Part shown: positions 1,583 through 64,000 of the stretch, in pieces
Position numbering within the stretch: the stretch's first letter is position 1
How the letters are laid out: each line of letters begins with the position of its first letter
DNA from: a virus
Length of the DNA: 64,000 bases
Virus record (IMG/VR): IMGVR_UViG_3300007790_000207
Reading direction: 5' to 3' (one strand)
Translations under genes and position numbers: made by a program
The notes under the pieces: generated by a model
Told to the model about the DNA's origin: nothing
The model's database searches: none
Seen by the model: the letters and a program-made list of their open reading frames with translations, nothing else

Positions 1583-1613
1583 CCACCGCCAGAAGAACTT
1601 TTTCGGGAGCACC

Positions 1614-1928
1614 ATGGACATCATCGCTGACCTCGGGGGTCTCGCCAACGTCACGGCGAGCACCCTCTTGGCCGCGTGCGTGTTCATGATCCTCACGGGC
1701 CGTCTGGTCCCCAAGAGCCACCTCGACGCCCTCCGCGCCGAGAAGGACGCCTGGCAGTCGGCCGCGCTCGCCTCCGAGGCCGCGCGCAAGGAGACCGAGA
1801 CCGCCTCCTGGAAGGCCGTCCACGCGCTCACCTCCGTCGAGCGGTTCCTCACCTCGCTCGAATCCCCTCCGAAGGATCGGACGGGAGGTGGTGGCAGTGT
1901 GGAAGATGTTCCAGCGCAGTCGGGTTGA
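1614..1928 (+). CDS. Membrane protein of the lysis cassette
   Basis: N-terminal TM segment followed by coiled coil; position after endolysin. Confidence 0.7.
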   Translation: MDIIADLGGLANVTASTLLAACVFMILTGRLVPKSHLDALRAEKDAWQSAALASEAARKETETASWKAVHALTSVERFLTSLESPPKDRTGGGGSVEDVPAQSG

Positions 1929-2109
1929 GCCTGATACGTCCGAGGCCGAGAAGATCATCGTCGAGGCCCGAGAGGCAGAGGTGCGCAACCGCGAGCGCTC
2001 TCAGCACATCGAAGTCGTCGCGGCCCGTCTGGACAGCCGTCTCCAGAAGAACCACTTCAGCGAGAGCCTGGCGGCGGCCTGGGCTAGGAAGGGCGAGGCC
2101 CTCGGATGA
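1888..2109 (+). CDS. Small lysis-cassette protein
   Basis: GGGAGG RBS, GTG start, coupled to the next gene by ATGA overlap. Confidence 0.6.
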   Translation: MVAVWKMFQRSRVEPDTSEAEKIIVEAREAEVRNRERSQHIEVVAARLDSRLQKNHFSESLAAAWARKGEALG

Positions 2110-2471
2110 ACAACACCCTCTTCTTCGAGATCACTCGATGGTCCGGTGAAGCCGTTGGCGTCTTCGGTGCCATCGGTCTGACGCTCTTCATCATCGACTA
2201 CGCGCGCATCACCGAATGGAAGATCAACGCCCAGGGCCGCGCGGTGATGTACCTCGCGGGCGGTCTGCTCGCCACCATCCTCTTCCTCGTGCTCCACAGT
2301 TTCGTCCGCGACTACGAGTGGCGCTGGATCACGGAGATCATCGTCTACACCCCGCTGGCGCTGGCGTGCTGGAACCTCCGGCAAGCCATGCGCAAGTCGA
2401 TGGGTATCCCTTCCGTCTGGCTCTTCATGAGTCCGCGGAAGACCAAGAAGTCCAAGTCCGACAACTCCTGA
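2106..2471 (+). CDS. Putative holin (3-4 TM)
   Basis: Several hydrophobic segments, basic C-tail, lysis cassette context. Confidence 0.7.
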   Translation: MNNTLFFEITRWSGEAVGVFGAIGLTLFIIDYARITEWKINAQGRAVMYLAGGLLATILFLVLHSFVRDYEWRWITEIIVYTPLALACWNLRQAMRKSMGIPSVWLFMSPRKTKKSKSDNS

Positions 2472-2484
2472 AAGGAGCCCTCCC

Positions 2485-2814
2485 ATGGTTGAGTTCACCC
2501 TCGACGCCGTGATGGTGGTGCAGTTCCTCGTCACCTCCCTCCTGCCCCTCGTGGTGGGTCTCGTCACGACCCGCGTGACCCACAGCGGCGCGAAGGCCGC
2601 TCTGCTCGCGACGCTCACGCTCCTCACCTCCCTGGGTGCCGAGTTCGTGCGTACCGTCCAGGACGGCCAGGTCTACGACCTCGGCCAGGGCCTCTTCCTG
2701 GCCCTGCCTGCCTTCGCCGTCGCCATCGGCGTCCACTACGGCCTCTACAAGCCCACCGGGGCCACGGAGACCGTGCAGGAGAGCCTCGTCCACCCCAAGG
2801 GCGACCACGCCTGA
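2485..2814 (+). CDS. Holin
   Basis: 3-4 TM segments (LLPLVVGLVTT...), AAGGAG RBS; resembles actinophage holins. Confidence 0.75.
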   Translation: MVEFTLDAVMVVQFLVTSLLPLVVGLVTTRVTHSGAKAALLATLTLLTSLGAEFVRTVQDGQVYDLGQGLFLALPAFAVAIGVHYGLYKPTGATETVQESLVHPKGDHA

Positions 2815-2912
2815 TGCTGTGCGACGAGAACACCTGTCTCTGCCGAGTGGCCGACCCGTGCGTGATCGACGGGTCGGTCCCGGCCGAGGCGGAGGCCGAC
2901 GCCACGGCCTGA
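2814..2912 (+). CDS. 32-aa Cys-rich peptide MLCDENTCLCRVADPCVIDGSVPAEAEADATA
   Basis: TGATG stop/start coupling to the holin; below the ORF-track cutoff. Confidence 0.4.
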   Translation: MLCDENTCLCRVADPCVIDGSVPAEAEADATA

Positions 2913-2962
2913 CTTTCCAGGCCTTGACACCTTGACCGAACCTGCTCTTGTACCCTAGAGGC

Positions 2963-3097
2963 ATGAGCATTGACACCTACACGGCTGAGACAGAGCCAAA
3001 CGTCTTCGCCGAGGTCTTCGCGGCCTTCCGGGTCGACATCGCGTATGCTGAGGCCATCGCATTGTCGGCTCGGAAGGACGAGGAGATGTCGGCTTGA
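2963..3097 (+). CDS. Hypothetical protein (44 aa)
   Basis: ATG 6 nt after a TACCCT -10-like hexamer; TTGA overlap with the helicase start. Confidence 0.5.
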   Translation: MSIDTYTAETEPNVFAEVFAAFRVDIAYAEAIALSARKDEEMSA

Positions 3098-4779
3098 CCC
3101 GTTTGGCCTTCGACGCCAGGAACTTCGATCCCCCCAAGCGGGAGGCACTCGCTTGGCGCATCCACAACCTCTCTGACGTCCAGTTCCCCGACCTCCCCTT
3201 CTGGAACGACCAGCCCTGCCGCAAGCACCGCGCGGGCTGGGAGGACACGTTCATGGGCGAGAACGGCCCCGAGGTCCGCAAGGTCGTCGGGAAGCCGAAG
3301 CCCGGATGCCGGGACTGCGGCATCGAACTCCGCGCGCACCAGAAGATCGGCGCGCTCTGGCTCTACTACAAGAAGAAGGGCCTGCTCGCCGACACCATGG
3401 GTCTCGGCAAGACCGCGATCCTCTCCGCGCTCGTCGGCCTCATGATCCAGTCCGGCGAACTCGCACCGCTCGCCAGCGGCGGCAACGGCCCCGCCATCAT
3501 CTGCCCGCGAGCCCCCGCGCTCCTCCAGTGGCGAGACGAACTCCTCCGCGTCATGCCGGGCCTGAAGATCGCCGTCGCCGACGCCCCGGCCGCGAAGCGC
3601 CAGCAGATGTACTTGGAGGACTACCACGTCCTCCTCATCGGTCCCGAGACGCTCATGCGGGACTACGACAAGTTGAAGAAGATCCCCCACTCCATCGTCA
3701 TCACCGACGACGTCGACGCCCTCCGCAACTCCGAGACCGTCACCTCCACTGTCCTCGACGGCATGGGCGCTCGCTCCGAGCGGTACGTCATCACCTCGGG
3801 CACCCCGCTCCAGAAGCGCCTTCCCGAGATCCATCAGGTGCTCGACGGCGTCGGCGGCGTGGACGCCTTCGGCGACCTGGCCGACTTCATGCGCCGCTAC
3901 TGCCGGTACGCGACCGTCACGACGCTCGACTCCCACGGCCAGCGGCAGAAGACGAATCAGATCGTCGGCTACCAGAACCTCGACGACTTCAAGACCCGCC
4001 TCGCGCCGCTCGTGCTCCGGCGCACGACGAGGGACCTCCACGACGTCAAGTTGCCGGTCATCCGCCCGCACGACGTCATGCTCGACCTCTACCCGAAGCA
4101 GAGGGCGAAGTACGTCGAACTCCAGAAGGGCGTCGTCAAACTCCTGAAGGAGGAGGGCGTCAAGGTCAAGCAGGTCACCGCCCTCTCGCGCATCCACTAC
4201 GGCGCGGCCATCTGCGCAGGCCTCTTCACGCTCGGCGAGCCCGACGGCCCGCTCCAGTCGGTGAAGTTGGACTGGATCGACGCCAAGATCGGCGAGGGAG
4301 GGGACCTCGAAGACGAGAAGGTCGTCATCTTCGCCAACCTGAAGTCGACGGTGCGCGCGCTTCAGTACCGCTTGAAGGCCCAGGGCATCGGCTTCGAGAC
4401 GGTCTGGGGCGAGGAGACGAACAAGCAGGCCCGCCTCAACTCGCAGAACCGGTTCTGGACGGACGACTCCTGCCGAGTCCTCATCGGCACCCGAGCCATC
4501 GAGCAGTCCCTCAACCTCCAGGTCTCCCGCCACCTCATCAACATCGACATGATCCTCAACCCGGCCCGCATGTCGCAGTTGGCGGGCCGAATCCGCCGCC
4601 AGGGCTCCGACTACTCGCAGGTCTTCGTCCACAACCTCGTCACGCGGAACACGCAGGAGGAGCGATACCTCGCCATGATCGAGAGGGAGGCCGCGCTCGC
4701 CGACCACGTCTGGAACGAGGACGCCGAACTCTTCAAGGCCCTTCCCTCGAAGGTCCTGCTCGAACTCATCAAGGGATGA
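3094..4779 (+). CDS. SNF2/SF2 family helicase
   Basis: DTMGLGKT (motif I), SGTPLQ (III), SLNLQ (V), QLAGRIRRQG (VI); motif II reads ITDDVD. Confidence 0.88.
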   Translation: MTRLAFDARNFDPPKREALAWRIHNLSDVQFPDLPFWNDQPCRKHRAGWEDTFMGENGPEVRKVVGKPKPGCRDCGIELRAHQKIGALWLYYKKKGLLADTMGLGKTAILSALVGLMIQSGELAPLASGGNGPAIICPRAPALLQWRDELLRVMPGLKIAVADAPAAKRQQMYLEDYHVLLIGPETLMRDYDKLKKIPHSIVITDDVDALRNSETVTSTVLDGMGARSERYVITSGTPLQKRLPEIHQVLDGVGGVDAFGDLADFMRRYCRYATVTTLDSHGQRQKTNQIVGYQNLDDFKTRLAPLVLRRTTRDLHDVKLPVIRPHDVMLDLYPKQRAKYVELQKGVVKLLKEEGVKVKQVTALSRIHYGAAICAGLFTLGEPDGPLQSVKLDWIDAKIGEGGDLEDEKVVIFANLKSTVRALQYRLKAQGIGFETVWGEETNKQARLNSQNRFWTDDSCRVLIGTRAIEQSLNLQVSRHLINIDMILNPARMSQLAGRIRRQGSDYSQVFVHNLVTRNTQEERYLAMIEREAALADHVWNEDAELFKALPSKVLLELIKG

Positions 4780-5516
4780 CCATGACCCAGCGACTCACGC
4801 CCTACCAGCGGGCCCTCATCGCGAACAACCGCGGCCTGGCCGTGAAGTTGGCGATGCTCGCCTGGAACAAGAACCGCAACCAAGACGGCGACGAGTTGAT
4901 CTCCGTCGCCTACCAAGGCTTGACGACGGCCGCCATCCTCTTCGATCCGAACCGCCAAGACATCGACCCCGACGACTTGGAGAACGGCCGGGCGTTCTCG
5001 GGCTACGCGCGCCAGCGGATCAACGGCTCGCTCCTCGACTGGCAGAGGAAGGGCGACTTCGTCCCCAAGCGTGTCCGCAAGTCCTACAAGGACCTCCAAG
5101 CCATCGGTCACGGCGAGGGAGCCACCGTCCGGGATCTCGCGGTAGCGACTGGTCTCCCGGAGGTCTCGATCCGCAAGGTGGTGGCCGCCGTCGAGTCGAT
5201 GCCGGTCTCCCTCGACTCCGCCATCAGCCCGGAGTCCGACGAAAAAAGTTCTCCGTCGAGCATCTACTACGTCGCCTCGGAGGCCGATGTCGAAGGTGAC
5301 AGCACGGTCTCGCTCGTCCTCCGCGAGATGGCTTCGACGTGGGCGGCCCTGCCCTTCCTCCAGCGGGCCGCGGTCGCCAACCGGTTCTACTTCGGCAAGA
5401 GCGTGAGCAAGACCGCGGAGGCGCTTGGATGCACCTCCGCGGAGGCCAAGGGTGCCCTCGCGGCCGGGATGGGCGCTATGCTGGACGCTCTCAGGTCCTC
5501 CGCCTCGTCGCGGTAG
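4776..5516 (+). CDS. RNA polymerase sigma-70 factor, FliA/WhiG-like
   Basis: Region 2 (DELISVAYQGL...FDP...FSGYARQRINGSLLDWQR), DFVPKRVR motif, PVSLDS, C-terminal region 4 HTH. Confidence 0.85.
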   Translation: MTMTQRLTPYQRALIANNRGLAVKLAMLAWNKNRNQDGDELISVAYQGLTTAAILFDPNRQDIDPDDLENGRAFSGYARQRINGSLLDWQRKGDFVPKRVRKSYKDLQAIGHGEGATVRDLAVATGLPEVSIRKVVAAVESMPVSLDSAISPESDEKSSPSSIYYVASEADVEGDSTVSLVLREMASTWAALPFLQRAAVANRFYFGKSVSKTAEALGCTSAEAKGALAAGMGAMLDALRSSASSR

Positions 5517-8240: not shown

Positions 8241-8242
8241 CC

Positions 8243-12135: not shown

Positions 12136-13125
12136 GTGTCGACCTTCAGCATGTGGCTGACGGCGCACCAGAAGAACCCTCAGCCCAAGCGGGTCATGTG
12201 GGTCTGCGGTGATGCCGAGGTGCTCGTCGAGGACGTGGTCCGTCAGACGGCGGCCGCGCTCGACCTGCGCCCCTGGTCGGACATCCGGCTCGTCATGGGC
12301 GAGGACCCGGAGAGCGCCATCTGGGACGCCGTCATGCAGTATCCCTTGGAGGTCGAGGACCGCCTCATCGTGGTCCACGAGGCTCAGCGCGTGAAGAACT
12401 TTTCTCCGCTGGCGGCCTTCCTCGCGAGCCGCAAGATCAATCCTCGCACCCACCTGGTCTTCGTCGCCAGCACCGCGCGAGCCGAGAAGACGAAGGGCGA
12501 CCGGGAGCAGGGCATCAAGCCCGCCCTCCTGCCGCACATCCAGACCATCCAGGCCAAGGGCAAAGTGGTCGAGTGCAGGAAGTTCACCGACGCCACGGCG
12601 AAGCACGCGATCACCTGGATTCAGGCTCGCGCCGACGTCACGCAGGCGGTCGCCCGGCAGATCCTCGTCCGGACGAACGGCGACCTCAGAGCCATCCGAG
12701 ACCTCTGCGTCAAGGCTTCGGCCCTCGGGGAGACCTCCGTCCTGGCCGTCAACGCTCTGTGCGCCCCTCTGCCGACCGATACGTTCGCGGACGCCCTCAT
12801 GGTGCTCGACCGCAAGACGGCGCTCCAGGCGCTCGCAGGGCTCTCCGACGAGGAGCGCACCGAGGCGCTCTACGACCTCTCCAGCAGGCTCGACACCGCC
12901 CGCAACGTCAACGCCATGCTCTCGGCGCGCAAGTCCAAGACCGAGATTCGCGCCATGCTCGCCGAACGCGGCCAGGGCCACATGGTCGACTACCTGATGG
13001 ACACCGCGAAGTACTACCACGCGAAGCGCGGTCTGGAGGTGCGCCGCATCCTCGACCGAGCGATCCGAGCGCATGAGTCCGGAGCCCGCGGCGGGGTGCT
13101 AGAGTCGGTCATCGCAGTCTGGTGA
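12136..13125 (+). CDS. Clamp-loader subunit, DNA Pol III delta (HolA)-like
   Basis: Opening MWVCGDAEVLVED, RLIVVHEAQ and ILVRTNGDLRAI resemble the HolA architecture. Confidence 0.65.
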   Translation: MSTFSMWLTAHQKNPQPKRVMWVCGDAEVLVEDVVRQTAAALDLRPWSDIRLVMGEDPESAIWDAVMQYPLEVEDRLIVVHEAQRVKNFSPLAAFLASRKINPRTHLVFVASTARAEKTKGDREQGIKPALLPHIQTIQAKGKVVECRKFTDATAKHAITWIQARADVTQAVARQILVRTNGDLRAIRDLCVKASALGETSVLAVNALCAPLPTDTFADALMVLDRKTALQALAGLSDEERTEALYDLSSRLDTARNVNAMLSARKSKTEIRAMLAERGQGHMVDYLMDTAKYYHAKRGLEVRRILDRAIRAHESGARGGVLESVIAVW

Positions 13126-22875: not shown

Positions 22876-23433
22876 ATGGCCCTTGCGTCCTGCATGGTGA
22901 CTGGCCTCTTCGCAGAGATCGGTCCCGACAGCGACGACCCGGACACCGTCCCTGACCGAGTCCCGCTCGTCGGCCTGAAGATCACCATCCGGCCGAACCT
23001 CGCTGAGAACTTTTTCACCGACGGCGAGGCCGCTCTCCTGCCCAAGATCTTCGAAGGCACGACCGACGACCAGGGTCGCGTCTGCCCTCTCGGAGCGCCT
23101 CGCGGCGTGGTCGGCCTTCCCATCATCGCCAGCGACGCCGTGGGCCAGGTCCCGCAGTCCTTCACGCACGAGGTCGAGATCCGCACCCGCCAGGGCAAGA
23201 TCCTCTCGCGCTTCCACATCCCTGCTCCGGCAGGGGGCACGGTCGACCTCGTCGACCACGTCCCGGTCGCTCCCTCTCCGGGCACCGGCATCGACGACCT
23301 CGACGAGATCGAGGCGCGCGTCATCGTGCTCGCGTCCCGTGCTGAAGAGGCCGTGCTCCGCGTCGAGTCGGCAGTCGCCAACCTCGACGACCTCCCCTCC
23401 CTCACCCTCCTCTATGAGAACGGGCTCGTGTGA
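22876..23433 (+). CDS. Putative virion accessory/adaptor protein
   Basis: GGAGG RBS; beta-rich; heads a structural-looking block. Confidence 0.5.
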   Translation: MALASCMVTGLFAEIGPDSDDPDTVPDRVPLVGLKITIRPNLAENFFTDGEAALLPKIFEGTTDDQGRVCPLGAPRGVVGLPIIASDAVGQVPQSFTHEVEIRTRQGKILSRFHIPAPAGGTVDLVDHVPVAPSPGTGIDDLDEIEARVIVLASRAEEAVLRVESAVANLDDLPSLTLLYENGLV

Positions 23434-24182: not shown

Positions 24183-26209
24183 CCGCCAGCATCCGCGCGT
24201 TCGCGACGACGCCGACGAACAGCGGTGGGTCGTCGATCACGATGTCCCTGCCGACCGGCATCCAGGCGGGGGACCTCCTCTTCGTCGTGCTGACGACCGG
24301 CGCTCCTTCGCTGACGATCACGGACGACGCCGCGAAGGGGTGGTGGGCCCCCACTCCGCGAGCCCTCTACGGGACGCGGTCCTGGTGGACGTTCGCCCGC
24401 ATCTACAACCCGAGCGATCCGGCCAGCACCTACACCTTCACGCAGAGCGGCATGGGTGCCGTGCGAGGGATCGCCTACGCCATCCAAGGGCACGCCGTCA
24501 CCCAGGCCTCCGGCATCACGGCCGGGACGTTCTGGACCCGCACCAACAACGGCGGCTCGCAGGCGCTCACGCGCGCTCCCAGCATCACGACGCCCCAGGC
24601 GGACATGCTCGTCCTCGCCTTCACCGGAGAGGCCACGAACACCGCGGGCGGCTACACCGTCACGGCGGCCAACGGCTTCACGCCCATCGTCGAACTCACC
24701 GAGGACGCGAACTTCATCGAGTGGATGACGTCGGCGCAGAAGGTGCAGGCGGCCGCGGGAGCCACCGGCAACTACGACATCACCTACGCGCACGTCGGAG
24801 GCAACGGCGCTGGCGTGCAGTACGCCATCCCGACCGCCGCTCAGCAGGCGATCACGACCGGCCGCATCGGCGCACACGTCGCCACCGGAGTCGAGCACGA
24901 CCGCTTCACCGTCGGAGCCGACCGGCTCGGAGGCACGACCGTCCAGGCGGCTCTTCTCGCCAACGGCAACGAGATCACCCGGCAGACCATCACGCACGAC
25001 GCCACCACCGGCTGGGGCAACACCGCGTTCACGGGGCTCGCATCCGACACCCTCTACACGGTGGAGTTCTACGTCGACGGCGTCAAGCAGACCGACGCGG
25101 CGCTCACCATCAGAACTTTTCCGGCTCCCGGCACGCCGAAGTCCTACGTCCTCGCCACCGGCTCCTGTCAGTTCACCGGCTCGAACCACCCCATCTGGGA
25201 CGTCATCAAGGCCGACAACCCGGTCATGCTCGCGCACATGGGCGACCTCCACTACAACGACGCCACCACGGAGCCGCTCTGGCGCGCTGGCGTCGAGGCT
25301 TCGCTCACCGCACCGAGGATGAAGAGCCTCCTGGAGCAGGTCGCCTTCAACTGGGCCTGGGACAACCACGACCGCATCATCACGAACGTCGGCGGCGCGG
25401 GCTCGGCGCTGAACCTCGGCACCACGGACCCGCAGACGGCGACCGCCTGGAAGCAGATGGCGGGCACCACCGGCTGGGCCTCTGCCGACGCCGTCGGCCG
25501 CACCTGGGTCGTCGGCCGCGTGCGCTACATCCAGACCGACAACTGGACGATGAAGCAGGACCCGGATGCCGGAGTCACCGGCCCGACCTTCCTCGGCGCG
25601 GCGCAGAAGCAGTGGTTCAAGGACACGCTCGCGGCCGCCACCGAGCCCGCCATCATCTGGCTCTGCCAGTGGACCGGCCAGGAGCACGCGAACGGCCGCT
25701 GGAACTCCTTCCCGGCCGAGACGACCGAGTTGGAGAACTGGATCAACGCGCGGCCGGAGATCAAGAGCCGCATGATCCTCATCGGTGGCGACTCGCACTC
25801 GCTCCAGGTCACCGACGGCTCCCGCACGGCGGCTCAGGGCCAGCGGTTCTCCGGGATGCCGAACTGGAACATCTCGGGCTTCAACCGCACGTCCACGGCT
25901 CCGAACGGCAGTCCCGGATGGTTGGTCGACGACGTGCTCCGGACGTCCGCGCAGGCGGAGGCGGACTGGGGCGGCTACTCGCGCCTCACGGTCGACGATG
26001 ACGGCCAGACCCTCTCCATCCTCTGGGAGGGCGTGCGCGTCGGCCCGACGGGGGCCACGGACGTCATGGCGTCGCAGACCTACACCGTCACCACGACCTC
26101 GCCGGAGTTGTTCTTCTTCGACTCGGTCACCAGAGAGACGCTGACGCCCATCTACTGGGACGGCACGACCGAAGAGGCACTGACGGCCGAATGGCACGCT
26201 GAGGCTTGA
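24179..26209 (+). CDS. PhoD/alkaline phosphatase D-like metallophosphatase with N-terminal structural domains
   Basis: TGSCQ, HMGDLHYND, WDNHD, LGAAQKQWFKDTL, GGDSH; N-terminus PTGIQAGDLL is typical of tail-associated beta domains. Confidence 0.8.
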   Translation: MTASIRAFATTPTNSGGSSITMSLPTGIQAGDLLFVVLTTGAPSLTITDDAAKGWWAPTPRALYGTRSWWTFARIYNPSDPASTYTFTQSGMGAVRGIAYAIQGHAVTQASGITAGTFWTRTNNGGSQALTRAPSITTPQADMLVLAFTGEATNTAGGYTVTAANGFTPIVELTEDANFIEWMTSAQKVQAAAGATGNYDITYAHVGGNGAGVQYAIPTAAQQAITTGRIGAHVATGVEHDRFTVGADRLGGTTVQAALLANGNEITRQTITHDATTGWGNTAFTGLASDTLYTVEFYVDGVKQTDAALTIRTFPAPGTPKSYVLATGSCQFTGSNHPIWDVIKADNPVMLAHMGDLHYNDATTEPLWRAGVEASLTAPRMKSLLEQVAFNWAWDNHDRIITNVGGAGSALNLGTTDPQTATAWKQMAGTTGWASADAVGRTWVVGRVRYIQTDNWTMKQDPDAGVTGPTFLGAAQKQWFKDTLAAATEPAIIWLCQWTGQEHANGRWNSFPAETTELENWINARPEIKSRMILIGGDSHSLQVTDGSRTAAQGQRFSGMPNWNISGFNRTSTAPNGSPGWLVDDVLRTSAQAEADWGGYSRLTVDDDGQTLSILWEGVRVGPTGATDVMASQTYTVTTTSPELFFFDSVTRETLTPIYWDGTTEEALTAEWHAEA

Positions 26210-32472: not shown

Positions 32473-32500
32473 TGCCTACCACGGCGGGGAACTTTTTCTC

Positions 32501-37428: not shown

Positions 37429-37449
37429 ACAACTTTTCCAGGAGACCTC

Positions 37450-37835: not shown

Positions 37836-38281
37836 GCCGCGGCTACTTCGCCATCGGCGTCTACCAGCCGAAGATCCCCGACAACATCGGGACGCTCATG
37901 CGCGCCGCGTACCTCTACGGTGCGGCCTACGTCTTCACCATCGGCAAGAGGTACGAGCGCCAGGCGACGGACACCCCGAACACGGCCAAGCACACGCCGC
38001 TCTTCCACTACGAGGACTTCTCGGACTTCCTCCACCACCGGCCGGACAACGCCCAGATCGTCGGCGTCGAACTCGACCACCGGAGCGTCTCCGTGGAGAA
38101 CTTTTCTCACCCGGAGCGAGCCATCTACCTGCTCGGTGCGGAGGACTACGGCCTCCGGGAGCGTCAGCGCCACCACTGCGACCACCTCATCCAGATCCCG
38201 ACCGTCAAGCCGCAGTCGATGAACGTCTCGGCGGCTGGCTCGATTGCCCTTTACAGCCGTCACGTCCAGATGGTACGTTGA
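37832..38281 (+). CDS. SpoU/TrmH-family RNA 2'-O-methyltransferase
   Basis: PKIPDNIGTLMRAA, LLGAEDYGL, SMNVSAAGSIALY SPOUT motifs. Confidence 0.9.
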   Translation: MSRGYFAIGVYQPKIPDNIGTLMRAAYLYGAAYVFTIGKRYERQATDTPNTAKHTPLFHYEDFSDFLHHRPDNAQIVGVELDHRSVSVENFSHPERAIYLLGAEDYGLRERQRHHCDHLIQIPTVKPQSMNVSAAGSIALYSRHVQMVR

Positions 38282-42699: not shown

Positions 42700-42709
42700 T
42701 ATTTTCCTC

Positions 42710-43575: not shown

Positions 43576-44010
43576 ATGAACTTTTCCGAGACGCAGATCG
43601 AGCAGGCCGCCGAGGTCCTCTTCCTGGAGGACGACCGCACCCTCATCGACACCCCCTGGAAGCAGTTGAACCGACACTCGCGAGCCCGCAAGCACTACCG
43701 CAGGCTGGCGATCCGGCTCCTGCCGGGCATCGTGAAGGTCATCGACCCGCACTACGAGGACCGCCAGCGGAAGAGCGGCGTCACCGAGTACGAGGGCAGG
43801 ATCTACGGCACCTGGCCGGTGCTCCTCCAGCGCGGCACCGAGGTTCGGGTCGGCACCCGCATGGGCCGCTACGGCGGGATCATGGCGACCTACGACAACC
43901 AGCCCTTCCACGAGGAGAGCGACAAGTGGTGGGAGGCCCAGGGCTGGACCATCGTGAACCCGCCCCTCCACGACGAGGCTCACGCGCGCTTCCAGGAGGC
44001 TCAGCGATGA
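43576..44010 (+). CDS. Hypothetical protein
   Basis: GGAGG RBS. Confidence 0.6.
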   Translation: MNFSETQIEQAAEVLFLEDDRTLIDTPWKQLNRHSRARKHYRRLAIRLLPGIVKVIDPHYEDRQRKSGVTEYEGRIYGTWPVLLQRGTEVRVGTRMGRYGGIMATYDNQPFHEESDKWWEAQGWTIVNPPLHDEAHARFQEAQR

Positions 44011-45044: not shown

Positions 45045-45430
45045 ACTCTGAACCGATGAGCGACGAACGGATGGAGATCATCCGCAAGGGTGTGCAGGCG
45101 CTCGCAGATCACGCCGCCGCCGGAGGCAACCGGAACTGGGCTGAGGTGGTGGTCGGAGAACTTTTCACGGAGGTTGAGCGGCTCCGCGCCCACCCGACCT
45201 CCTACGAGGACCTCCTCGCGGATCGCAACGGCTGGAAGAAGGCGTGGGCGGAGGAGCGCGAGAAGGGCCGCTGGCGCATCAACGCGATCTCCCGGCTGAA
45301 GGGGCCGGTCATGCTCGCGCGCCTGAAGGGCTACTTCGTCGACACCGTCCTCTCCGACCACGACGTCGACGAGTACGTCGCCGGAGAGGTCCACAAGATC
45401 ATCCGCGAGGTCATCGGGGAGGAGATCTGA
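45041..45430 (+). CDS. Hypothetical protein
   Basis: ATGA coupling. Confidence 0.6.
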   Translation: MNSEPMSDERMEIIRKGVQALADHAAAGGNRNWAEVVVGELFTEVERLRAHPTSYEDLLADRNGWKKAWAEEREKGRWRINAISRLKGPVMLARLKGYFVDTVLSDHDVDEYVAGEVHKIIREVIGEEI

Positions 45431-54389: not shown

Positions 54390-55459
54390 TCGACTCCATC
54401 AGCATCAAGAACTTCCAGAGCCTCTACGACGTCACCATCCCCCTGTCCCCGTTCACGGTGGTCGTCGGCAAGTCCTCCAGCGGCAAGAGCGCGTTCGTGC
54501 GGGCCATCAGGCTCCTGCTCCAGAACGCTCGCGGGACGAACTTCATCAGCCACGGCGAGGACACGGCCGAGGTGGAGGCGACGTTCTCCGACGGGATGCA
54601 GATCAGCATCGAGCGCGGGAAGGTCAACCGCTACGTCCTCGACAGCGTGGGCCCCTCCAGCGCCTTCGTCGACGCGCAGGTGTTCACGAAGTTGGGCGGG
54701 GAGGTCCCGGACGCGATCCAGGACGCGATCCGCATCGACCCGAGCCTCAGCATCGCCGGTCAGTTCGATCCCCCGTACCTGCTCACGGCGTCGGGCGGGG
54801 AGGTCGCCAGGACCCTCGGGGCGCTCACCAACGTCGACGTCGTGCTCGCGGCCGGGCGGGAGGCGGCTCGTCGTCGGCTCCAGTCGTCGAGCACGCTCAG
54901 GAGCCTCCAGGAGGCCGTCGAGGAGGACCACTCCGCCAGGATGCTCCTCGGGGACGTCGACGCGCGCCTGGAGGCCGCGGAGAAGGCCGAGGGTGCCCTG
55001 CACCACGCCGAAGCCCTGGAAGGCCGTCTGAGGCGCGCTGAGAGCGTCCTGGGGCATGTTTCGTCGGCCATCGAGACCTACAGGTCGGTCCAGGTGCCGG
55101 TCGTGCCCGATGTGGGCCCTCTGCTGGAGGCTGTCGAGGACGCCGAGCGCCGGTGGGTCCAGGTCGAGGAGATCCTGCTGAAGGCGTCGGAGGCGGACCG
55201 CTACCTCCAGGACGTCCCGGTCGTCGAGGTGCCCGAGGTCGACTTCGATGCGTTCGAGGAGATCCAGCGCCACCACGAGGACGCCGAGAACTTTCTCCGG
55301 GTCTTCCGGCTCGCCGTGTACGAGTGGCAGAGCGCAGGGCAGGCGGTGGCGCTGTACGAGGGCCAGGTCGCTGAAGCCCAGGAGGAGTACTCCCTCGCGC
55401 TGGCGGCCGCCGGTGTCTGTCCGACCTGCGGGCAGGAGACTTCGCATCTGCACCCCTGA
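54386..55459 (+). CDS. SbcC/Rad50-like ATPase, N-terminal half only
   Basis: ISIKNFQS, VGKSSSGKS Walker A, IAGQFD, coiled coil, ends at the CPTCGQ zinc hook; no signature motif or Walker B. Confidence 0.85.
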   Translation: MIDSISIKNFQSLYDVTIPLSPFTVVVGKSSSGKSAFVRAIRLLLQNARGTNFISHGEDTAEVEATFSDGMQISIERGKVNRYVLDSVGPSSAFVDAQVFTKLGGEVPDAIQDAIRIDPSLSIAGQFDPPYLLTASGGEVARTLGALTNVDVVLAAGREAARRRLQSSSTLRSLQEAVEEDHSARMLLGDVDARLEAAEKAEGALHHAEALEGRLRRAESVLGHVSSAIETYRSVQVPVVPDVGPLLEAVEDAERRWVQVEEILLKASEADRYLQDVPVVEVPEVDFDAFEEIQRHHEDAENFLRVFRLAVYEWQSAGQAVALYEGQVAEAQEEYSLALAAAGVCPTCGQETSHLHP

Positions 55460-55555: not shown

Positions 55556-55668
55556 CCTCTTGCTCCAGGAGCACGCTAAAGAACTTTTCCGGACAGCCGT
55601 CAACGGATTCTGGCTCAGAACTGCCAGTTCTCGTTCAGAACCCCTTGACGAGGAGCCCAGAAAGTACT

Positions 55669-56805
55669 TCAGGCAGTGACGATCTGCTGAGCGATGGCGC
55701 GCAAGCCCCGCTCCTCGTCGTCGATGAGGAGGCTCTTCCCGGTCAGGGAGACCCGCAGTTCGACCTCGCCCCGTCCGGCGGCCTTCAGCATCGCCGACAG
55801 GTGCTCGTGGTGGAAGACGGCGTGCAGGCGCTTCTCGTCCTGCCAGGAGGCCGAGACGACCTCCTTCGTGAGGTTCCCCGAGCGGTCCTCGGAGATCATG
55901 ACCACCGCCCAGCCCGCGTTCGTCTGCACGGAGCGCAGGGTGACCTCGGGGTGGTCGTTGTCGGAGTACGTCCGCACTCGGGCCAGCGACGCCAGCATCT
56001 CCTCCGCGGTGCCGATTAGGAGCCCGTGGGTCTCCACCAGCGCCGCCGTCTCCACCTTCGAGACGTCCGGGTAGGGCAGGAGGGGCTTCGTCACGAGGAT
56101 GTCGAGGTTGTCGTAGGCGAGGAGGATCTTCTTCGGGCTCTCGGAGATCGTGAGGCCGCCTTGCTTCAAGGATGCGACGATGGAGGCGACCGGCCGCGAG
56201 AGGTCGACGTCGAAGAACTTTCCGGGGAGCGCGCGCTTCAGGAGCAGGGAGCCGTTCGTCGCGGTCGCGAACCCGCCGCCGAGGTGGACTCGCTCCAGCG
56301 TCGGGCGACCGGAGTTCTTGGGGACGGCAGGAAGCACCCCGGAGACGGCCTGCGCAAGGTCCTGGGCGTCCAGGACGGTGAAGGCCACCATCTCCTCGTC
56401 CTCGTCGTCCCAGTGGCCCACAGCGCCGGAGACCTCCCACCTCGTCCTGGAGGTGCGGAGCATGATCTTCTCGGCGTCGAGGACGGAGATCTCGACCTTC
56501 GGGGAGTCGGCGGCCTTCAACTTCGCCAGGAACTCCGGCAGGACGACCGAGATCGACCCCGCTTCGAGCACCTGGGCGTCGATCCGGGTCGTCAGGCGCA
56601 TCTCGCCGGTGTCGCAGGACAGATCCAGCCGCGAGACGCCGTCAGAGCCTCCCACAGCCGCGATCCGGAGCATCAGGGGTCCGAGTGCCGCCGGTCGGTC
56701 CTTCGCCGCTCCTGCGAGCACGGAGGCGATCTTCGTCAGGCTCGTCGTAGCGACGCGGGCCCGGAGTTCGGCTCCAGGGGGCAGGAGGGTGCCCTCAGAG
56801 GTCAC
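55669..56805 (-). CDS. dnaN: DNA polymerase III beta sliding clamp-like protein
   Basis: 378 aa; RPTLERVHL...ATATNGSLL, PYPDVSKV and EMLASLARV, matching clamp repeat features. Confidence 0.75.
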   Translation of the reverse strand: MTSEGTLLPPGAELRARVATTSLTKIASVLAGAAKDRPAALGPLMLRIAAVGGSDGVSRLDLSCDTGEMRLTTRIDAQVLEAGSISVVLPEFLAKLKAADSPKVEISVLDAEKIMLRTSRTRWEVSGAVGHWDDEDEEMVAFTVLDAQDLAQAVSGVLPAVPKNSGRPTLERVHLGGGFATATNGSLLLKRALPGKFFDVDLSRPVASIVASLKQGGLTISESPKKILLAYDNLDILVTKPLLPYPDVSKVETAALVETHGLLIGTAEEMLASLARVRTYSDNDHPEVTLRSVQTNAGWAVVMISEDRSGNLTKEVVSASWQDEKRLHAVFHHEHLSAMLKAAGRGEVELRVSLTGKSLLIDDEERGLRAIAQQIVTA

Positions 56806-57037: not shown

Positions 57038-57877
57038 CTAGTCGAGTCCGGTCCCGCCGGGAAGACGCATCCGTCGGGTGCCCGGCTCCGGCAAGAACTT
57101 TTCGCAGGCGTGCTTCACGGGGCACCAGGCACAGCCGTCGGTGTCGTCCTTCGGGGGCATGGCGTCGTTGACGACGTCGTTCGCCATGTTGGTGATGTCG
57201 CGGAAGAGCGCGAGCCTCGCCTCGGGCCCGATCTCGATGGGCTTCAGGCGGTGCTTCTCCGGGAGGAGGGGCTGGATGAGCGCCGCTCCTTCGACCCGGC
57301 CGCCGTAGCGCAGTTCGGTGGCGACCGAGTAGTAGACCATCTGGCCCTGGGTCTTCTTCCAGTAGTCGGCGTTCCTCGTCTGCTTCAGGTCGAAGACGTA
57401 CCAGCGGTCGTGTTCCTCGTCATGCACGAGGTAGTCCATGTAGCCGTTGAGCGTGACGTGGATGGGGTCTCCGCCGCCGTTGCGCGCCGCGTGCATCGGG
57501 ACCTCGAACTTGACGTCCTGGTCGTGCCAGTACGGGGTGACGTGCTCCAGGAGGATCGGCTCCAGGTTGGTGATCGCCTCGGCGCAGTCGGCTCGGACCT
57601 TCTCGCGGTCGTCGACGGACTTCCATCGCACGATGCCGGACTCCTCCGCCTCGGCGACCGCGCGCTCGAAGTACTCGTCGAGCATCAAGAGCATCTGGCC
57701 GGGCTGGCGGTCCTTGTCCTTCAGCCAGTCGCGCGAGATCCGGTCGGTGATGGTGCCGGGCAGGAAGTTCCTCTGGTCCTCCAGCGCCGCCTTGCGGCCG
57801 GTCCGCATCAACTTCGCCTTCTGCTTGCACTCGACGTAGGTCCGCAGGCTGGACCACGAGATCCGGATGGTCTCCAC
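57038..57877 (-). CDS. PD-(D/E)XK nuclease, AddB/Cas4-like with Fe-S cysteines
   Basis: ISWSSLRTYVECK, GYMDYL...FDLKQT, QMVYY, CAWCPVKHAC; AGGAGG RBS. Confidence 0.85.
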   Translation of the reverse strand: METIRISWSSLRTYVECKQKAKLMRTGRKAALEDQRNFLPGTITDRISRDWLKDKDRQPGQMLLMLDEYFERAVAEAEESGIVRWKSVDDREKVRADCAEAITNLEPILLEHVTPYWHDQDVKFEVPMHAARNGGGDPIHVTLNGYMDYLVHDEEHDRWYVFDLKQTRNADYWKKTQGQMVYYSVATELRYGGRVEGAALIQPLLPEKHRLKPIEIGPEARLALFRDITNMANDVVNDAMPPKDDTDGCAWCPVKHACEKFLPEPGTRRMRLPGGTGLD

Positions 57878-57887: not shown

Positions 57888-58277
57888 CTACAGACTCGGG
57901 CGCTGGGCGGCATAGGAGGGCCTGTTCCGGAGGATGCTGGACTTGCGCGCGATGCGACGGCCCAGGACCTTGCTCGCGGCCTCGGCGTCCTCGCGGAGCA
58001 TCCGGCCACCGGCGAACTCGAAGCCGCCGTTGATGCCTTCGGTGGTCGGGTCCGAGATCGCGGCCTCCAGGCACAACTTTCTCACGGGGCAGGAGACGCA
58101 GATCTCCTTCGCCTCGTCCATGAGCGGATGCCAGTCGCTCGTCCACGCGGCCGCCATCGCCGGGTCCTGAGCGGCTTCACCGCAGGCGGACTCCTGGTGC
58201 CAGTCGGGGATCGGCTTGTCGTAGGTCGTCGTCTTGTAGGAGCGCACGGTGCTCCGGTGGTCGTACCAGTCGGTCAC
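57888..58277 (-). CDS. whiB: WhiB-family transcription regulator
   Basis: W..E.AC...AKEICVSCPVRKLCL...GINGG. Confidence 0.85.
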   Translation of the reverse strand: MTDWYDHRSTVRSYKTTTYDKPIPDWHQESACGEAAQDPAMAAAWTSDWHPLMDEAKEICVSCPVRKLCLEAAISDPTTEGINGGFEFAGGRMLREDAEAASKVLGRRIARKSSILRNRPSYAAQRPSL

Positions 58278-59221
58278 TCTGCGTCCTCGATCAGGCTGAT
58301 GGCGGTCTGCTTCACTTCGTCCTCTGCTTCCATGGTGCGGATGTGGTCGATGACGGACGAGGTCGTCGTCATCGCGATCTGGGAGTGGCCGACGGCGGCG
58401 AGGAAGTTCTCCGCCTCGATGGCCTTCTGCTTCTTCGCGGTGCCCTCGACGATCTTGAAGACCTCCTCCGCCGGTCGGCAGGGGACGGGGATCTCCTCGA
58501 ACCCGTGCTTGGGGCTCCAGTCGAGAACTTTCACGGTCCGGGTCATGTGGGACTCGGTCAGCGAGCCGCGGGAGATCGCGCCGACGTTGGCGAAGGTGAC
58601 GCCGCTCGTCTCCCAGATCCCGTAGTCGTCGTGGATGTGGCCGAACTGGATGAAGCCCCAGTTCCCCATCGCCTTCGCGACCTGCTCGCTCGTGAGGTGC
58701 TCGTAGATCGGCTCTTGACCCGGCGGGAAGATCGAGGCGTGGGTGACGACGAGGGAGTTCGGTGCGTCCTCGTGCTCCAGGAAGCCGTCGAAGGCCTCCT
58801 CCAGGTCGCCTTCCCAGTCCTGTTGCCACGGGACGCCGAAGAGGGGCAGGTCCGGGTGCCAGCCGGAAAGTTCTCGGGCCCCGGCGGCGAACAGCACGCC
58901 GAGGGGCTGGCTCGCGTGCAGGGACTCGTAGCGGTCGTTCGTGAGGTCGTGGTTGCCTGCGACGATCCAGAGCGGGATGCCGACGGCCTCGTAGTGCTTC
59001 ACGACGTCGATCATCTTCAGGACGAGCGCGTGGGAGTTCTTCCGCGGCGACTTGTGGTGGAAGACATCGCCGGCCCAGACGACGGCATCGACCTTCCGAC
59101 GTGCGCCCTCGTCGGCGATCCAGCGGAGCATCTCGATGATGTCGTCCGTGTAGGTCTCGGTGCAGTTGATGGGCGGGGTGTCGGAGACGTGGATGTCGCC
59201 GACGAGGAGAACGTGGGGCAT
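58274..59221 (-). CDS. SbcD/Mre11-like nuclease
   Basis: GDIHVSD, AGDVFH, AGNHD, VTHAS, GHIHD, NVGAISR. Confidence 0.88.
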   Translation of the reverse strand: MPHVLLVGDIHVSDTPPINCTETYTDDIIEMLRWIADEGARRKVDAVVWAGDVFHHKSPRKNSHALVLKMIDVVKHYEAVGIPLWIVAGNHDLTNDRYESLHASQPLGVLFAAGARELSGWHPDLPLFGVPWQQDWEGDLEEAFDGFLEHEDAPNSLVVTHASIFPPGQEPIYEHLTSEQVAKAMGNWGFIQFGHIHDDYGIWETSGVTFANVGAISRGSLTESHMTRTVKVLDWSPKHGFEEIPVPCRPAEEVFKIVEGTAKKQKAIEAENFLAAVGHSQIAMTTTSSVIDHIRTMEAEDEVKQTAISLIEDAE

Positions 59222-59683: not shown

Positions 59684-59719
59684 GGCGCGCTCCTAGAGGT
59701 TGGGGGAACCGATGACTCC

Positions 59720-59749: not shown

Positions 59750-59819
59750 CACCAATCTAGGAGAATCTTTTCTTGACTTCGACTTGACATGACACTTGGA
59801 GCGTGCGTACTGTGGACTC

Positions 59820-60632: not shown

Positions 60633-60682
60633 ACCACGAGATCCCCTGGGCTACGGCTCAGGGGATTCTTCGTGCCAGCCTA

Positions 60683-60696
60683 TTGACACTCGTCAA
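60683..60696. promoter_or_regulatory. TTGAC-N4-GTCAA operator/promoter
   Basis: TTGACACTCGTCAA following a terminator hairpin (60641-60666). Confidence 0.7.
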
Positions 60697-60771
60697 GTCC
60701 CATGCTTCAATGGAGGTGCCGGGAAGTCCGGCCACATACCAGCCTTGAAGGAGGCAGAGAGCAGGGACACG

Positions 60772-61122
60772 ATGAGCAACAAGATCTTCGCAAGCGTCAA
60801 CGGGACGTGGGACGACATGGAGCGCACGATCAAGACGGCGTTCGACTGGCAGGCCCACGAGATCGTGATCGTCGGCATCGCGGGCCTGGAGCCCGTGATG
60901 GAGGAACTTTCCGCGCGGTGGGACCAGTACCAGATCCCGATCTCGGTGCTCCCGAACCGCGGCGAAGACTGCTCGGATGTCCGCTTCACCTACCCGCCGT
61001 TCGTCGGCGTCTCGCAGGAGGACTCGTTCGCCCGCAAGGTGCTGGAGTCCAACGCGGGGCAGGCGGTCTTCCAGAACGGCGTCCTGCGCTCCTACCGGCC
61101 GATCCAGAAGTCGGCCGCCTGA
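60772..61122 (+). CDS. Hypothetical protein
   Basis: Phage codon usage. Confidence 0.6.
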   Translation: MSNKIFASVNGTWDDMERTIKTAFDWQAHEIVIVGIAGLEPVMEELSARWDQYQIPISVLPNRGEDCSDVRFTYPPFVGVSQEDSFARKVLESNAGQAVFQNGVLRSYRPIQKSAA

Positions 61123-61671: not shown

Positions 61672-61800
61672 GCCGGAGCCACGAGGCCGGGGGAGATCCC
61701 CTCGGCCTCCTCGGCGTGCCCGAGAACTTTCCCAAACTCGCCTTGACCAATATTGACATTGGACTTGACAACCGACTTGACCGTCGGCTACAGTGGAGTC

Positions 61801-62330: not shown

Positions 62331-62358
62331 AGTTCTTCGAGAAATCTGCCTGGAGGCC

Positions 62359-62388
62359 TTGACAAGTGTCAAGGCCTTCAAGTAGTAT
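62359..62388 (+). promoter_or_regulatory. Promoter with extended palindromic operator
   Basis: AGGCC-TTGACAAGTGTCAA-GGCCT; TAGTAT 62383-62388. Confidence 0.8.
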
Positions 62389-62424
62389 GTAAGTAACAGT
62401 TCAACCCCGACCAAGGAGCATCCC

Positions 62425-62760
62425 ATGGCACTCAACCCCGCGAAGGTCGCCCAGGCCGCGAAGATCGACGCCCTCATCGCCGACCTGAAGGCGAAGCGCG
62501 ACCTCCTCCAGGAGCACATGCGCGCCGAGGCGGCCGAGGGCACGACCATCGTCGAGCACAAGGGCGTCAAGTACGTCGTGACGGCGACGCCCAAGACCGA
62601 ACTGGACGCCAAGGCGTTCCAGGCCGCGCACCCCTACGCCGAGTTCCCCGAGTTCTACAAGACCGACCCGACCTTCAGCGCGGCGCTCGTCAAGGAGAAG
62701 GACCGCGAGGGCTACACGCAGTCCGGCACGACCGCGATCAGCCTGAAGGTGGCGAACTAG
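62425..62760 (+). CDS. Hypothetical protein
   Basis: AAGGAG RBS. Confidence 0.65.
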   Translation: MALNPAKVAQAAKIDALIADLKAKRDLLQEHMRAEAAEGTTIVEHKGVKYVVTATPKTELDAKAFQAAHPYAEFPEFYKTDPTFSAALVKEKDREGYTQSGTTAISLKVAN

Positions 62761-62762
62761 CC

Positions 62763-63005
62763 ATGATCCAGCCCTTCTACGAGAGCGAGAACGCGGCCCT
62801 GGTCGCCATGCTCAACGACGTCGCCGTCTTCATGACGGACAAGGAGGCCCACGAGATGATCCCGGCCTTCCTGCCGCAGATCGAGGCCGTGAAGGTCCGG
62901 CACTTCGGCTCCGACCACGAGCGCAACTACATCTTCTACGTCGACCCGCTGAAGCACCGGGAGGGCGTCACGAACATCCTGAAGGAGCGCGCGCGGAAGG
63001 AGTAG
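62763..63005 (+). CDS. Hypothetical protein
   Basis: Operon ORF. Confidence 0.6.
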   Translation: MIQPFYESENAALVAMLNDVAVFMTDKEAHEMIPAFLPQIEAVKVRHFGSDHERNYIFYVDPLKHREGVTNILKERARKE

Positions 63006-63052
63006 ACATTCAAGTCGAAGTCATGTAGACTTCAAGCGGCTACAAGCCCATA

Positions 63053-63083
63053 GAAGGCCCGGAGAGGACACCTCCGGGCCTTC
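63053..63083 (+). terminator. Terminator hairpin
   Basis: GAAGGCCCGGAG / CTCCGGGCCTTC. Confidence 0.65.
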
Positions 63084-63626
63084 GCTTGTGCTATCGTGCT
63101 CTCACCGGACGGCTCGAAGGGGCCTGAAGGCCAGATTACGCCAGGCATTCGGATCGACTTCCACCGCCACCGCAAACGCTATGACGCCAGCCCCTCGGGG
63201 ATAAGGCAGAGGTGTCCTCTCTGCTGAAGGCAAGTCGGACCCCCTCGAAGGCGAGGGCAGACGGCAAGACCACCGGCTCGCTTACCGGGTGTAGAGAGAT
63301 CCAGAGAAGCCCACGAGTCAGTGACGGCGTGCTTCAAGGAAGGCCCGACACGCGACTATCCGGGGAGCGCCCCCTTCAGCGCAGGAAGACCCCTACCGGA
63401 CGATCACTGACATGCCCCGGCCCTTGGCATCGAGTAATCCCCGAGCCCGTCCGATGGTCCACTCCATCCTGAAGACGCCCCTGCGACACGACGAAGAACC
63501 GTGCCGCAGGGGCTTTCCTCCTGCCATCCTCCTGAAGGGTGGATGAAGAAGTGCAGAAGGACGAGGGACGACCGGACCGAGGAGACGACTACCGGAGGAG
63601 CCCACCCACCGGGTAGGCTCCGAGGC
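63084..63626. other. About 540-bp non-coding region of unknown function
   Basis: No ORF with phage codon usage; several hairpins; recurring GAAG motifs. Confidence 0.5.
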
Positions 63627-64000
63627 ATGGCAGAACTTTTCCCCGACCTCGCTCTCCAGATCTCGCAGGCGAAGACGAAGGCGCTCGGCGACATCGCTGT
63701 CCGCTCCAGCATCGAGGACCGCATCGCGAGGACCGAGGCTCGCATCGTCGATCTCCAGCACGAGGCCGACGTCTTCGAGAAGGCGACGATGCTCCTGAAC
63801 ACGCTCGGCGAGGAGCGCCAGCACGAGGCCCAGGCGATGATCGAGGGCCTGGTCACCCGAGGGCTCCAGACCGTCTTCGAGCCGAACCTCTCGTTGGTGA
63901 TCTCGACGCAGGTCAAGGGCAAGACGACCACGACCGACTTCCTCATCCGCACGGATCTCGGCGACGAGGCGTTCGAGACGAGCGTGATGGACGCCCGAGG
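63627..64000 (+). CDS. SbcC/Rad50-like ATPase, C-terminal half (truncated by window end)
   Basis: Coiled coil then IEGLVTRGLQTVF...ETSVMDARG, the segment that precedes the ABC signature motif in Rad50 C-halves. Confidence 0.75.
   Translation, partial: MAELFPDLALQISQAKTKALGDIAVRSSIEDRIARTEARIVDLQHEADVFEKATMLLNTLGEERQHEAQAMIEGLVTRGLQTVFEPNLSLVISTQVKGKTTTTDFLIRTDLGDEAFETSVMDAR

Follow-up and report, generated by a model that had tools for sequence, protein, structure and literature searches.

The stretch analysed here (hereinafter the window) comprised 64,000 bp of the IMG/VR virus record IMGVR_UViG_3300007790_000207, with a G+C content of 67%. It carried a dispersed 12-letter asymmetric word, GRAGAACTTTYC, with about 25 copies on one strand in the non-virion half of the genome of a soil actinophage of about 130 kb. 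Nearly all window genes were encoded on the + strand (third-position G+C 0.85-1.0), and the window encoded M23 peptidase, holin, SNF2 helicase, DnaB-like helicase, DNA polymerase I, RecA/UvsX-like protein, RtcB, and four tRNAs. Genes encoding SbcC-like ATPase, Mre11-like phosphoesterase, WhiB protein, Cas4-like nuclease, and sliding clamp were also identified. A 112,994-bp soil-metagenome contig (ENA ERZ924410; run SRR3712237) matched the window with 1 mismatch in 18,332 bases, and the coordinates of the two gave a phage genome of at least 129 kb. The DNA read corresponded to window coordinates -9,444 to 86,379 (95.8 kb), with flanks obtained by protein look-up; the part of the genome outside this reading was about 33 kb of virion genes.

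The closest cultured phage was Microbacterium phage Magritte (polymerase 41% identical), and IMG/VR relatives of 124-136 kb had polymerases 43-50% identical to that of the window phage. Three metagenomic contigs, L138, L139, and L140, encoded clamp proteins 56-63% identical to the window clamp. RtcB showed 70-74% identity to Microbacteriaceae proteins, and this likeness, the sole pointer to the host, suggests a member of that family. The phage looks lytic. No match to it was found by megablast of phage genomes, and no relatives were found when the clamp protein was compared with IMG/VR and JGI metagenome contigs. A scan of IMG/VR for TGAAGAACTTTTCC gave only chance matches in unrelated contigs, and a second metagenome scan, combining the word with a ribosome-binding site, gave no further relatives among the 120 matches listed. 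When the literature was searched by sequence, the only matches were GFP primers, since GFP encodes Glu-Glu-Leu-Phe as GAAGAACTTTTC.

In a ranking of the 7- to 10-mers of the window by over-representation, the AGAACTTT word scored highest. It was present 19 times, against 0.26 expected from dinucleotide shuffles (largest count, 3). The exact sites listed in the original prediction, an earlier note made from the letters of the window, were all found (17 on the + strand, plus 5245 and 58867 on the - strand), together with the one-base variants at 32488 (GGAACTTT), 37429 (ACAACTTTTCC), 43577 (TGAACTTTTCC), 60903 (GGAACTTTCC), and 58073 (ACAACTTTCTC). Within the 95.8 kb read, the core GAACTTT occurred in 23 copies on the + strand and 4 copies on the - strand. 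The sites in the window were as follows.

1594..1603, +, site AGAACTTTTT, between the stop of the M23 peptidase gene (1582) and the next ATG (1614)
5245..5252, -, site, isolated copy antisense to the sigma-like gene 4776-5516, compatible with chance occurrence on the - strand
12395..12404, +, site (TGA)AGAACTTTTC, in gene 12136-13125, codons AAG AAC TTT TCT
23006..23015, +, site AGAACTTTTT, in gene 22876-23433
25112..25121, +, site AGAACTTTTC, in gene 24179-26209, codons AGA ACT TTT
32488..32497, +, variant GGAACTTTTT, intergenic, 4 nt 5' of a CTTGAC -35-like box
37429..37438, +, variant ACAACTTTTC, directly 3' of a hairpin unit and 12 nt 5' of ATG 37450
38097..38106, +, site, in gene 37832-38281
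43577..43586, +, variant (A)TGAACTTTTC, gene 43576-44010, overlap with its start codon, identical in the L138 orthologue
45157..45166, +, site, in gene 45035-45430, codons GAA CTT TTC
46479..46488, +, site, abutting stop TGA (46478), followed by a ribosome-binding site and ATG 46502
51165..51174, +, site, abutting stop TGA (51164), 5' of a three-hairpin array
53273..53282, +, site, abutting stop TGA (53272), followed by a ribosome-binding site and ATG 53296
55287..55296, +, site AGAACTTTCT, in gene 54386-55459
55580..55589, +, site, in a convergent gap bordering the inverted cluster on its left, about 25 nt 3' of a terminator-like hairpin
56214..56223, +, site GAAGAACTTTCC, clamp gene, antisense strand, sense-oriented in relatives at the same codon position
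57094..57103, +, site, PD-(D/E)XK nuclease gene, antisense strand, peptide CEKF
58073..58082, +, variant ACAACTTTCT, WhiB gene, antisense strand
58524..58533, +, site AGAACTTTCA, Metallophos gene, antisense strand, with rare codons AAA GTT, absent in relatives
58867..58874, -, site, sense in the Metallophos gene (GAA CTT TCC), common to L138 and L139
60373..60382, +, site, in gene 60285-60632
60903..60912, +, variant GGAACTTTCC, in gene 60745-61122
61723..61732, +, site, with a hairpin on one side and a TTGAC promoter on the other
63632..63641, +, site, codons 3-5 of the gene from 63627 onward; L138 has ACAACTTTTC there in another frame

An alignment of 55 sites from the phage and the three close relatives (L138, L139, and L140) gave the consensus G-R-A-G-A-A-C-T-T-T-Y-C, with R at -2 and an information content of about 17 bits over 12 positions. 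Outside the 12-bp word, no conserved position was found from -30 to +49. No partner box or second hexamer was detected within -35 to +50, and a flexible-distance word search was null after multiple testing. Of the 12 positions of the main form, 8 were unchanged in its reverse complement, which makes it a weak pseudo-palindrome, clearly asymmetric; the TGAAG-NN-CTTCA pseudo-palindrome that had been proposed as its extended form was perfect only in the TTCA variant at 53745. A sigma-70-type two-box promoter was rejected, since no hexamer was present at 16-19 bp and the distance from the word to ATG ranged from overlap to more than 900 nt.

The excess was evaluated with a codon-aware null, in which synonymous codons were swapped within each gene and AGCT was kept absent (150 replicates). 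Within genes, fifteen GAACTTT were observed on the + strand versus 1.97 +/- 1.33 in the null (maximum 6), and 3 versus 0.99 on the - strand; eight intergenic copies were found on the + strand, with 0.31 expected. Protein sequence, codon usage, and AGCT avoidance were thus rejected as the cause of the word. In coding sequence, the word forces codons that the phage otherwise avoids. As shares of the codons for their amino acids, these were 1.3% for TTT (Phe), 1.9% for CTT (Leu), 1.0% for AAA (Lys), 0.6% for AGA (Arg), and 1.6% for GTT (Val), and much of the scarce TTT and CTT was due to the word. The excess over the null, the intergenic copies, and the occupation of all three reading frames by in-gene sites supported the earlier claim insofar as the word acts through nucleic acid and not through protein. 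The inclusion of AGAACTTC variants in the motif did not hold, as their in-gene counts (22 and 26) were close to those of the null (24.9 and 20.3); these in-gene variants are ordinary.

Relatives retained the word, which the original prediction had named as a check. It was the top enriched word in L138 (16+/4-), L139 (8+/1-), and L140 (8+/3-), and several sites were orthologous, sometimes in another frame. At the start of gene 43576, ATGAACTTTTCC was found both in the window phage and in L138 (L138 position 109). The clamp-loader gene started with AAG AAC TTT in two phages and with ACA ACT TTT in the third, where the word was shifted by one base, and the Metallophos gene contained GAA CTT TCY in three phages. 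The gene at 63627 began ATG GCA GAA CTT TTC in the window and ATG GAA GAC AAC TTT TCG in L138 (14195). Because the same DNA word was kept at orthologous spots despite different encoded residues, the word is selected at the level of nucleic acid and is a real signal. More distant relatives (polymerase 41-50% identical) were without the word and showed enrichment of other AT-rich words. AGAAGATTC was found in 15+/25- copies spread over the whole of a complete IMG/VR genome (125.8 kb), with both strands and several reading frames represented, and AAGAATTT was found in 8+/1- copies in another distant relative. The Magritte words were the promoter-linked GTTAGCGCGTA and GATATCCCTG, which was present on the + strand only, beside virion-gene start codons. 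Dispersed lineage-specific words are common in this clade, and their strand behaviour varies.

According to synteny, the segment 55,669-59,683, which encodes the clamp, Cas4-like nuclease, WhiB, and Mre11-like proteins, was inverted in the window phage alone, relative to all three close relatives, and had its own leftward promoter at 59749. It was bounded by same-orientation look-alikes of the word, not by inverted copies. In the clamp gene, GAA CTT TTC was in sense orientation in L139 and L140, with a one-mismatch form in L138; the window clamp gene had GGA AAG TTC TTC at the same position, that is, the word on the other strand, a change involving five base and two residue differences. The site at 57094 was closer to the consensus than the sequence of the relatives, through a Lys-to-Leu (TTG) change. 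At orthologous positions in relatives, 56214, 57094, and 58524 were absent or weaker, and the three antisense GAACTTT in 4 kb compared with about 0.05 expected under the null. These three sites look selected, judging from the relatives and the null, and the word is thus kept on the genome + strand whatever the local gene. The - strand copy at 58867 is the ancestral sense-strand site, which the inversion carried along. The earlier claim that the motif stays on the + strand within minus-strand genes was borne out by the three sites and the 58073 variant. As a caveat, both sites in a small minus cluster of L138 were on the - strand, that is, in sense orientation.

Along the genome, + sites spanned 1,594 to 66,810, with three more beyond the window, up to 66.8 kb. 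The predicted rightward rise in density was confirmed (1, 1, 1, 1, 2, 3, 4, and 7 sites per 8-kb bin; Kolmogorov-Smirnov p = 0.004), and the highest + density, about 1 site per 0.8 kb, was found in and just before the inverted leftward operon. The only intergenic - copies were those at 68,781 and 69,901, each lying between a terminator-like hairpin and a strong repeated early promoter, antisense to local transcription. The core GAACTTT was not found in the approximately 26 kb of virion genes read, which comprised tail genes 5' of the window and, beyond 70 kb, terminase, portal, and the first 6.9 kb of a gene for 3348 residues; one ACAACTTTTCC variant was present at 79,339. The word is thus confined to the non-virion half of the genome.

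Eight of the 23 + sites were intergenic, although such DNA amounted to about 8%, and the majority lay inside genes. Several sites abutted a stop codon, 2-5 nt 5' of the next ribosome-binding site (46479, 51165, and 53273), and stop-abutting sites were also found in L138 (2469 and 9748). About one-third of the sites were within -45 to +35 of a start codon by manual count. Four or five were near promoters at variable distance (32488, 61723, and 64326; 68781 and 69901), and operons were preceded by ordinary TTGACA/TAnnnT promoters. The 40 nt upstream of sites folded slightly more stably than background (-11.6 vs -9.9 kcal/mol, p = 0.002). Real hairpins were limited to a few sites, however, and a terminator was rejected.

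The word was also searched for in candidate hosts. Its 10-mer was found in 0-1 copies per genome in 5 Microbacteriaceae genomes, and in 41 others of the family its 9-mer occurred about as often as the reversed control. Since the word was at control level in these 46 genomes and was the top word only in close relatives, its reader is specific to the phage lineage. The rrn boxA of Microbacterium oxydans, CTTTGAGAACTC, had only GAGAACT in common with the word. An rrn-type boxA (NusB/NusE site; CTTTGAGAACT(C/A)) was rejected, as TTTGA[GA]AAC occurred 0 times in the 95.8 kb. No convincing complementarity of the word to 16S rRNA was found.

Several other features were observed in the DNA read. The sigma-A-type promoters often had their -35 box within a palindrome, TTGAC-N4-GTCAA (19354-19439, 31945-32047, 35552-35632, 41468-41527, 42629-42767, 51380-51420, 59684-59819, 60633-60744, and 62331-62424), which looks like the operator of a dimeric regulator with a regulon apart from the AGAACTTT word. 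At about 67.8-70.0 kb (L143:11480-13700), six near-identical early promoters (CTTGACA-N18-TACAGT/TACACT) each preceded and drove a small gene beginning ATGAGCAAC, with hairpins between the units; by analogy, this series resembles the host-takeover modules of large lytic phages. The gene for 3348 residues started at about 79.4 kb (L145:15627), after the portal and MuF-like genes, and its Magritte counterpart encoded 1991 residues.

GC-stem hairpin arrays were found at operon ends, with three units at 51181-51377, beginning directly 3' of TGAAGAACTTTTCC, and four units at 53473-53736, with CTGAAGAACTTC on both sides, as in a target duplication. The loop text CAGCGCAAGCGCATCGAG was common to the single units at 26888 and 37372. 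By eye, no real match was found between the spacers of the hairpin arrays and the word. Three tandem small genes at 52441-53272, all beginning ATGAAGAACTTCACC (MKNFT), look like recent tandem paralogues from their sequences and supplied 3 of the 10 TGAAGAACTT copies. In addition, the tetranucleotide AGCT was absent from the 95.8 kb of the phage and from the complete 125.8-kb IMG/VR genome (G001). Other relatives had about 80-160 AGCT per 15-22-kb locus, and Magritte had 657 in 133 kb (the comparison took in L138, L139, L140, L119/L120, L126, and G001). CTAG was likewise depleted (ratio 0.43). The absence of AGCT suggests a trait of the lineage, namely avoidance of a restriction site of the AluI type.

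We tentatively interpret the word as an orientation-dependent, stoperator-like site for a phage protein controlling early and middle transcription; we infer both binding by a protein and transcription as the target. A factor specific to this lineage, most likely a sequence-specific DNA-binding protein encoded by the phage itself, would read the word and, once bound, act in a polar way on rightward-moving RNA polymerase, by blocking, pausing, or silencing. Transcription units of the early and middle classes would thereby be shut down or tuned, and rightward read-through would also be kept out of the inverted leftward operon. The single compact asymmetric box without a partner is consistent with a monomeric or asymmetric binder rather than a two-box promoter, and confinement to the non-virion half fits control of a temporal class. 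The peak + density at the leftward operon would be explained by a barrier against head-on rightward transcription. Together with the phage-specific sequence and the apparent preference for gene boundaries and the vicinity of promoters, these properties fit this interpretation best.

Candidate readers, the only DNA-binding candidates that Pfam gave, were the protein encoded by 4776-5516 (+), HTH_17 protein (8237-8461), and WhiB protein (57888-58277). The first, of 246 residues, showed weak collinear Pfam hits to sigma regions 2, 3, and 4 and matched PDB 6pmi_F (E = 1.5e-5), so it is probably a FliA/sigma-28-like sigma factor; its Magritte orthologue is annotated merely as a DNA-binding protein. 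Several results weigh against a stoperator-like role. No DNA-binding domain was found by Pfam among 60 proteins of 11-46 kb, and no binding protein turned up, no search having been aimed at relatives of the Cluster A repressor, which combines an HTH domain with a Stoperator domain. Three or four sites of the inverted cluster were antisense to local genes, unlike stoperators, and the sense-oriented sites of the L138 minus cluster indicate that the genome-strand rule is not universal. The virion genes, which stoperators cover, were avoided by the word. A role at the RNA level would explain the sites at -45 to +35 of start codons equally well. Further, a silencer of the lysogeny type is not expected in a phage that looks lytic.

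The original prediction had named several kinds of signal, among which a stoperator was the best match, except that orientation did not follow local transcription throughout. Since it departed from stoperators in local orientation and in virion-gene coverage, the word is described here as stoperator-like in its working and is not filed as a stoperator. The other proposals fared less well: a Chi/KOPS word of the host is unlikely given the control-level counts in Microbacteriaceae, a parS-type site is unlikely for an asymmetric word dispersed in about 25 copies, and a packaging or ejection signal of the whole genome fits poorly with the virion genes read being free of the core.

The word could also work in the + transcript, as a cleavage or processing site, as a translational regulator or enhancer site near starts, or in the loading of an antitermination complex, to which we assign a rather low, though appreciable, probability. 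Nearly all sites were in the sense strand of + genes, about one-third were near starts, and several were at a nearly constant 2-5 nt before a ribosome-binding site; sites at gene starts were kept between phages (43577 and L138 109; 63632 and L138 14195; the clamp-loader start), and hairpin arrays, possible non-coding RNAs, started directly after the word. AA/CUU of the word fits RN/CNU (slash, cleavage point), which we take to be the preference of mycobacterial RNase E, but about 17 bits over 12 positions exceeds the specificity of an RNase E site. GAGAACU is common to the M. oxydans boxA, although the 5' half of boxA is missing from the word and no full host-type boxA was found in the phage. 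An RNA signal is also difficult to reconcile with the three apparently selected sites and the 58073 variant that are antisense to the mRNAs of the inverted cluster, with the - sites at 68781 and 69901 between terminator and promoter, with the lack of convincing 16S rRNA complementarity, and with an upstream structure that was only slightly enriched. Another reading, which we consider unlikely, is polar DNA signalling in the manner of Chi, KOPS, or architecture-imparting sequences, with a phage-encoded translocase, helicase-nuclease, or replication or packaging machinery as the reader, so that density and strand alone would matter. If such a system existed, the word would be held on one strand, and genome-strand sites would be selected anew after the inversion, an equally improbable course in our judgment. 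The strand was kept whatever the local gene orientation, density climbed toward 67 kb with intergenic - copies just beyond (68.8 and 69.9 kb), sites favoured places of low coding constraint, and the phage has RecA-like, SbcC/Mre11-like, Cas4-like nuclease, SNF2 helicase, clamp, and clamp-loader proteins. On the other side, the word was not enriched in the candidate host family. Signals of this kind usually extend over an entire replicon, but about 26 kb of virion genes was free of the word. L138 lacked a polarity switch after the clamp-loader gene, and its minus cluster had - sites. Several sites were conserved in position, which such signals do not need. Chi and KOPS words are typically 5-8 bp and G-rich, unlike this AT-rich word of 12 bp.

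Still less probably, the word would be a promoter element of one box, recognised by RNA polymerase that the phage has modified, for instance through the sigma-like protein 4776-5516 or WhiB. A FliA-like sigma is indeed encoded by the phage, and the word is lineage-specific and oriented with most genes. A precedent may be GATATCCCTG of Magritte, a single box with 11 copies on the + strand versus 1, separated from the ATG of virion genes by 1-4 nt. The core, CGATAT, presumably recalls the sigma-28/sigma-D -10 element, and from its position the box looks like the -10 element of sigma-28-type promoters that yield leaderless late mRNAs. However, the Magritte orthologue of the sigma goes with late genes, where the word of the window phage is absent. 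The distance of the word to start codons varied from overlap to several hundred nt within genes, and for upstream words a start 6-8 nt downstream would fall in the ribosome-binding site. No -35 or -10 partner was present, the + copies in the inverted cluster would yield antisense RNA only, and TTGACA/TAnnnT promoters already precede the operons. Finally, it is very improbable that the word is a recombination homology or target, such as a module-boundary linker or an insertion site of hairpin arrays. One array was flanked on both sides by CTGAAGAACTTC, the other started directly after TGAAGAACTTTTCC, and many sites were at gene boundaries in the most variable region, but half of the sites were inside conserved genes at conserved positions. 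Recombination would also leave the strand bias and the phage-specific sites of the inverted cluster unexplained, and the look-alikes at the edges of the inversion were in the same orientation.

If the word is a roadblock or silencer, as tentatively preferred here, the stoperator principle would apply to large phages of the lytic type as well as to the temperate mycobacteriophages of Cluster A. If it is a polar signal, it would be a viral counterpart of Chi/KOPS-type sequences, with lineage-specific words (AGAACTTTYC; AGAAGATTC) across a clade of actinophages of about 125-135 kb; to our knowledge, no viral polarity signal of this kind has been described for phages. Dispersed asymmetric words offer a rare handle on gene expression and DNA handling of large uncultivated actinophages. 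This word was common to phages with proteins about 60% identical and marks the non-virion half of the genome, and the clade is recognisable by it in metagenomes.

Stoperators of Cluster A mycobacteriophages (L5 and TipsytheTRex) are asymmetric 13-bp sites with more than 20 copies at promoters and in short gaps (PMC9283540). They are orientation-dependent, are bound by a monomer with two DNA-binding domains, and vary in sequence between related phages (PMC9283540). The word resembled them in being short (12 vs 13 bp) and asymmetric, in having more than 20 dispersed copies in one preferred orientation, and in differing between related phages. Some of its sites were at promoters or in short intergenic gaps, with most inside genes. 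In contrast to stoperators, it avoided virion genes, its phage looks lytic and is about 130 kb, and the sites in the inverted operon kept the genome strand, three and the 58073 variant being antisense and one sense. The stoperator rule that orientation follows local transcription thus held for + genes and for the L138 minus cluster but failed at 55.7-59.7 kb.

The word was also compared with other repeated elements. Start-associated sequences of Cluster K mycobacteriophages directly precede start codons, and the ribosome-binding site forms part of them. About one-third of the copies of the word were likewise beside translation starts; unlike those sequences, only about 8 of its 25 own sites were at translation starts, most copies lying elsewhere, some of them deep in genes or antisense to genes. 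As in Chi, KOPS, and architecture-imparting sequences, the word was strand-locked, dispersed, placed against codon preference, and denser toward one point, but it differed from them in the lack of host-family enrichment, the cover of only part of the replicon, its AT-rich 12 bp, and its positional conservation. With single-box promoters (T4 late TATAAATA and Magritte GATATCCCTG) it had in common a short box on one strand, lineage specificity, and a sigma-like protein in the phage; it lacked their fixed geometry to start codons, was absent from late genes, and had antisense copies that were apparently selected. Both the word and rrn boxA are single 12-nt sense-strand elements, and GAGAACT is common to boxA and the G-at-minus-2 form of the word, but the CTTT 5' half of boxA is not conserved in the word, and the TTTYC 3' half of the word is not in boxA.

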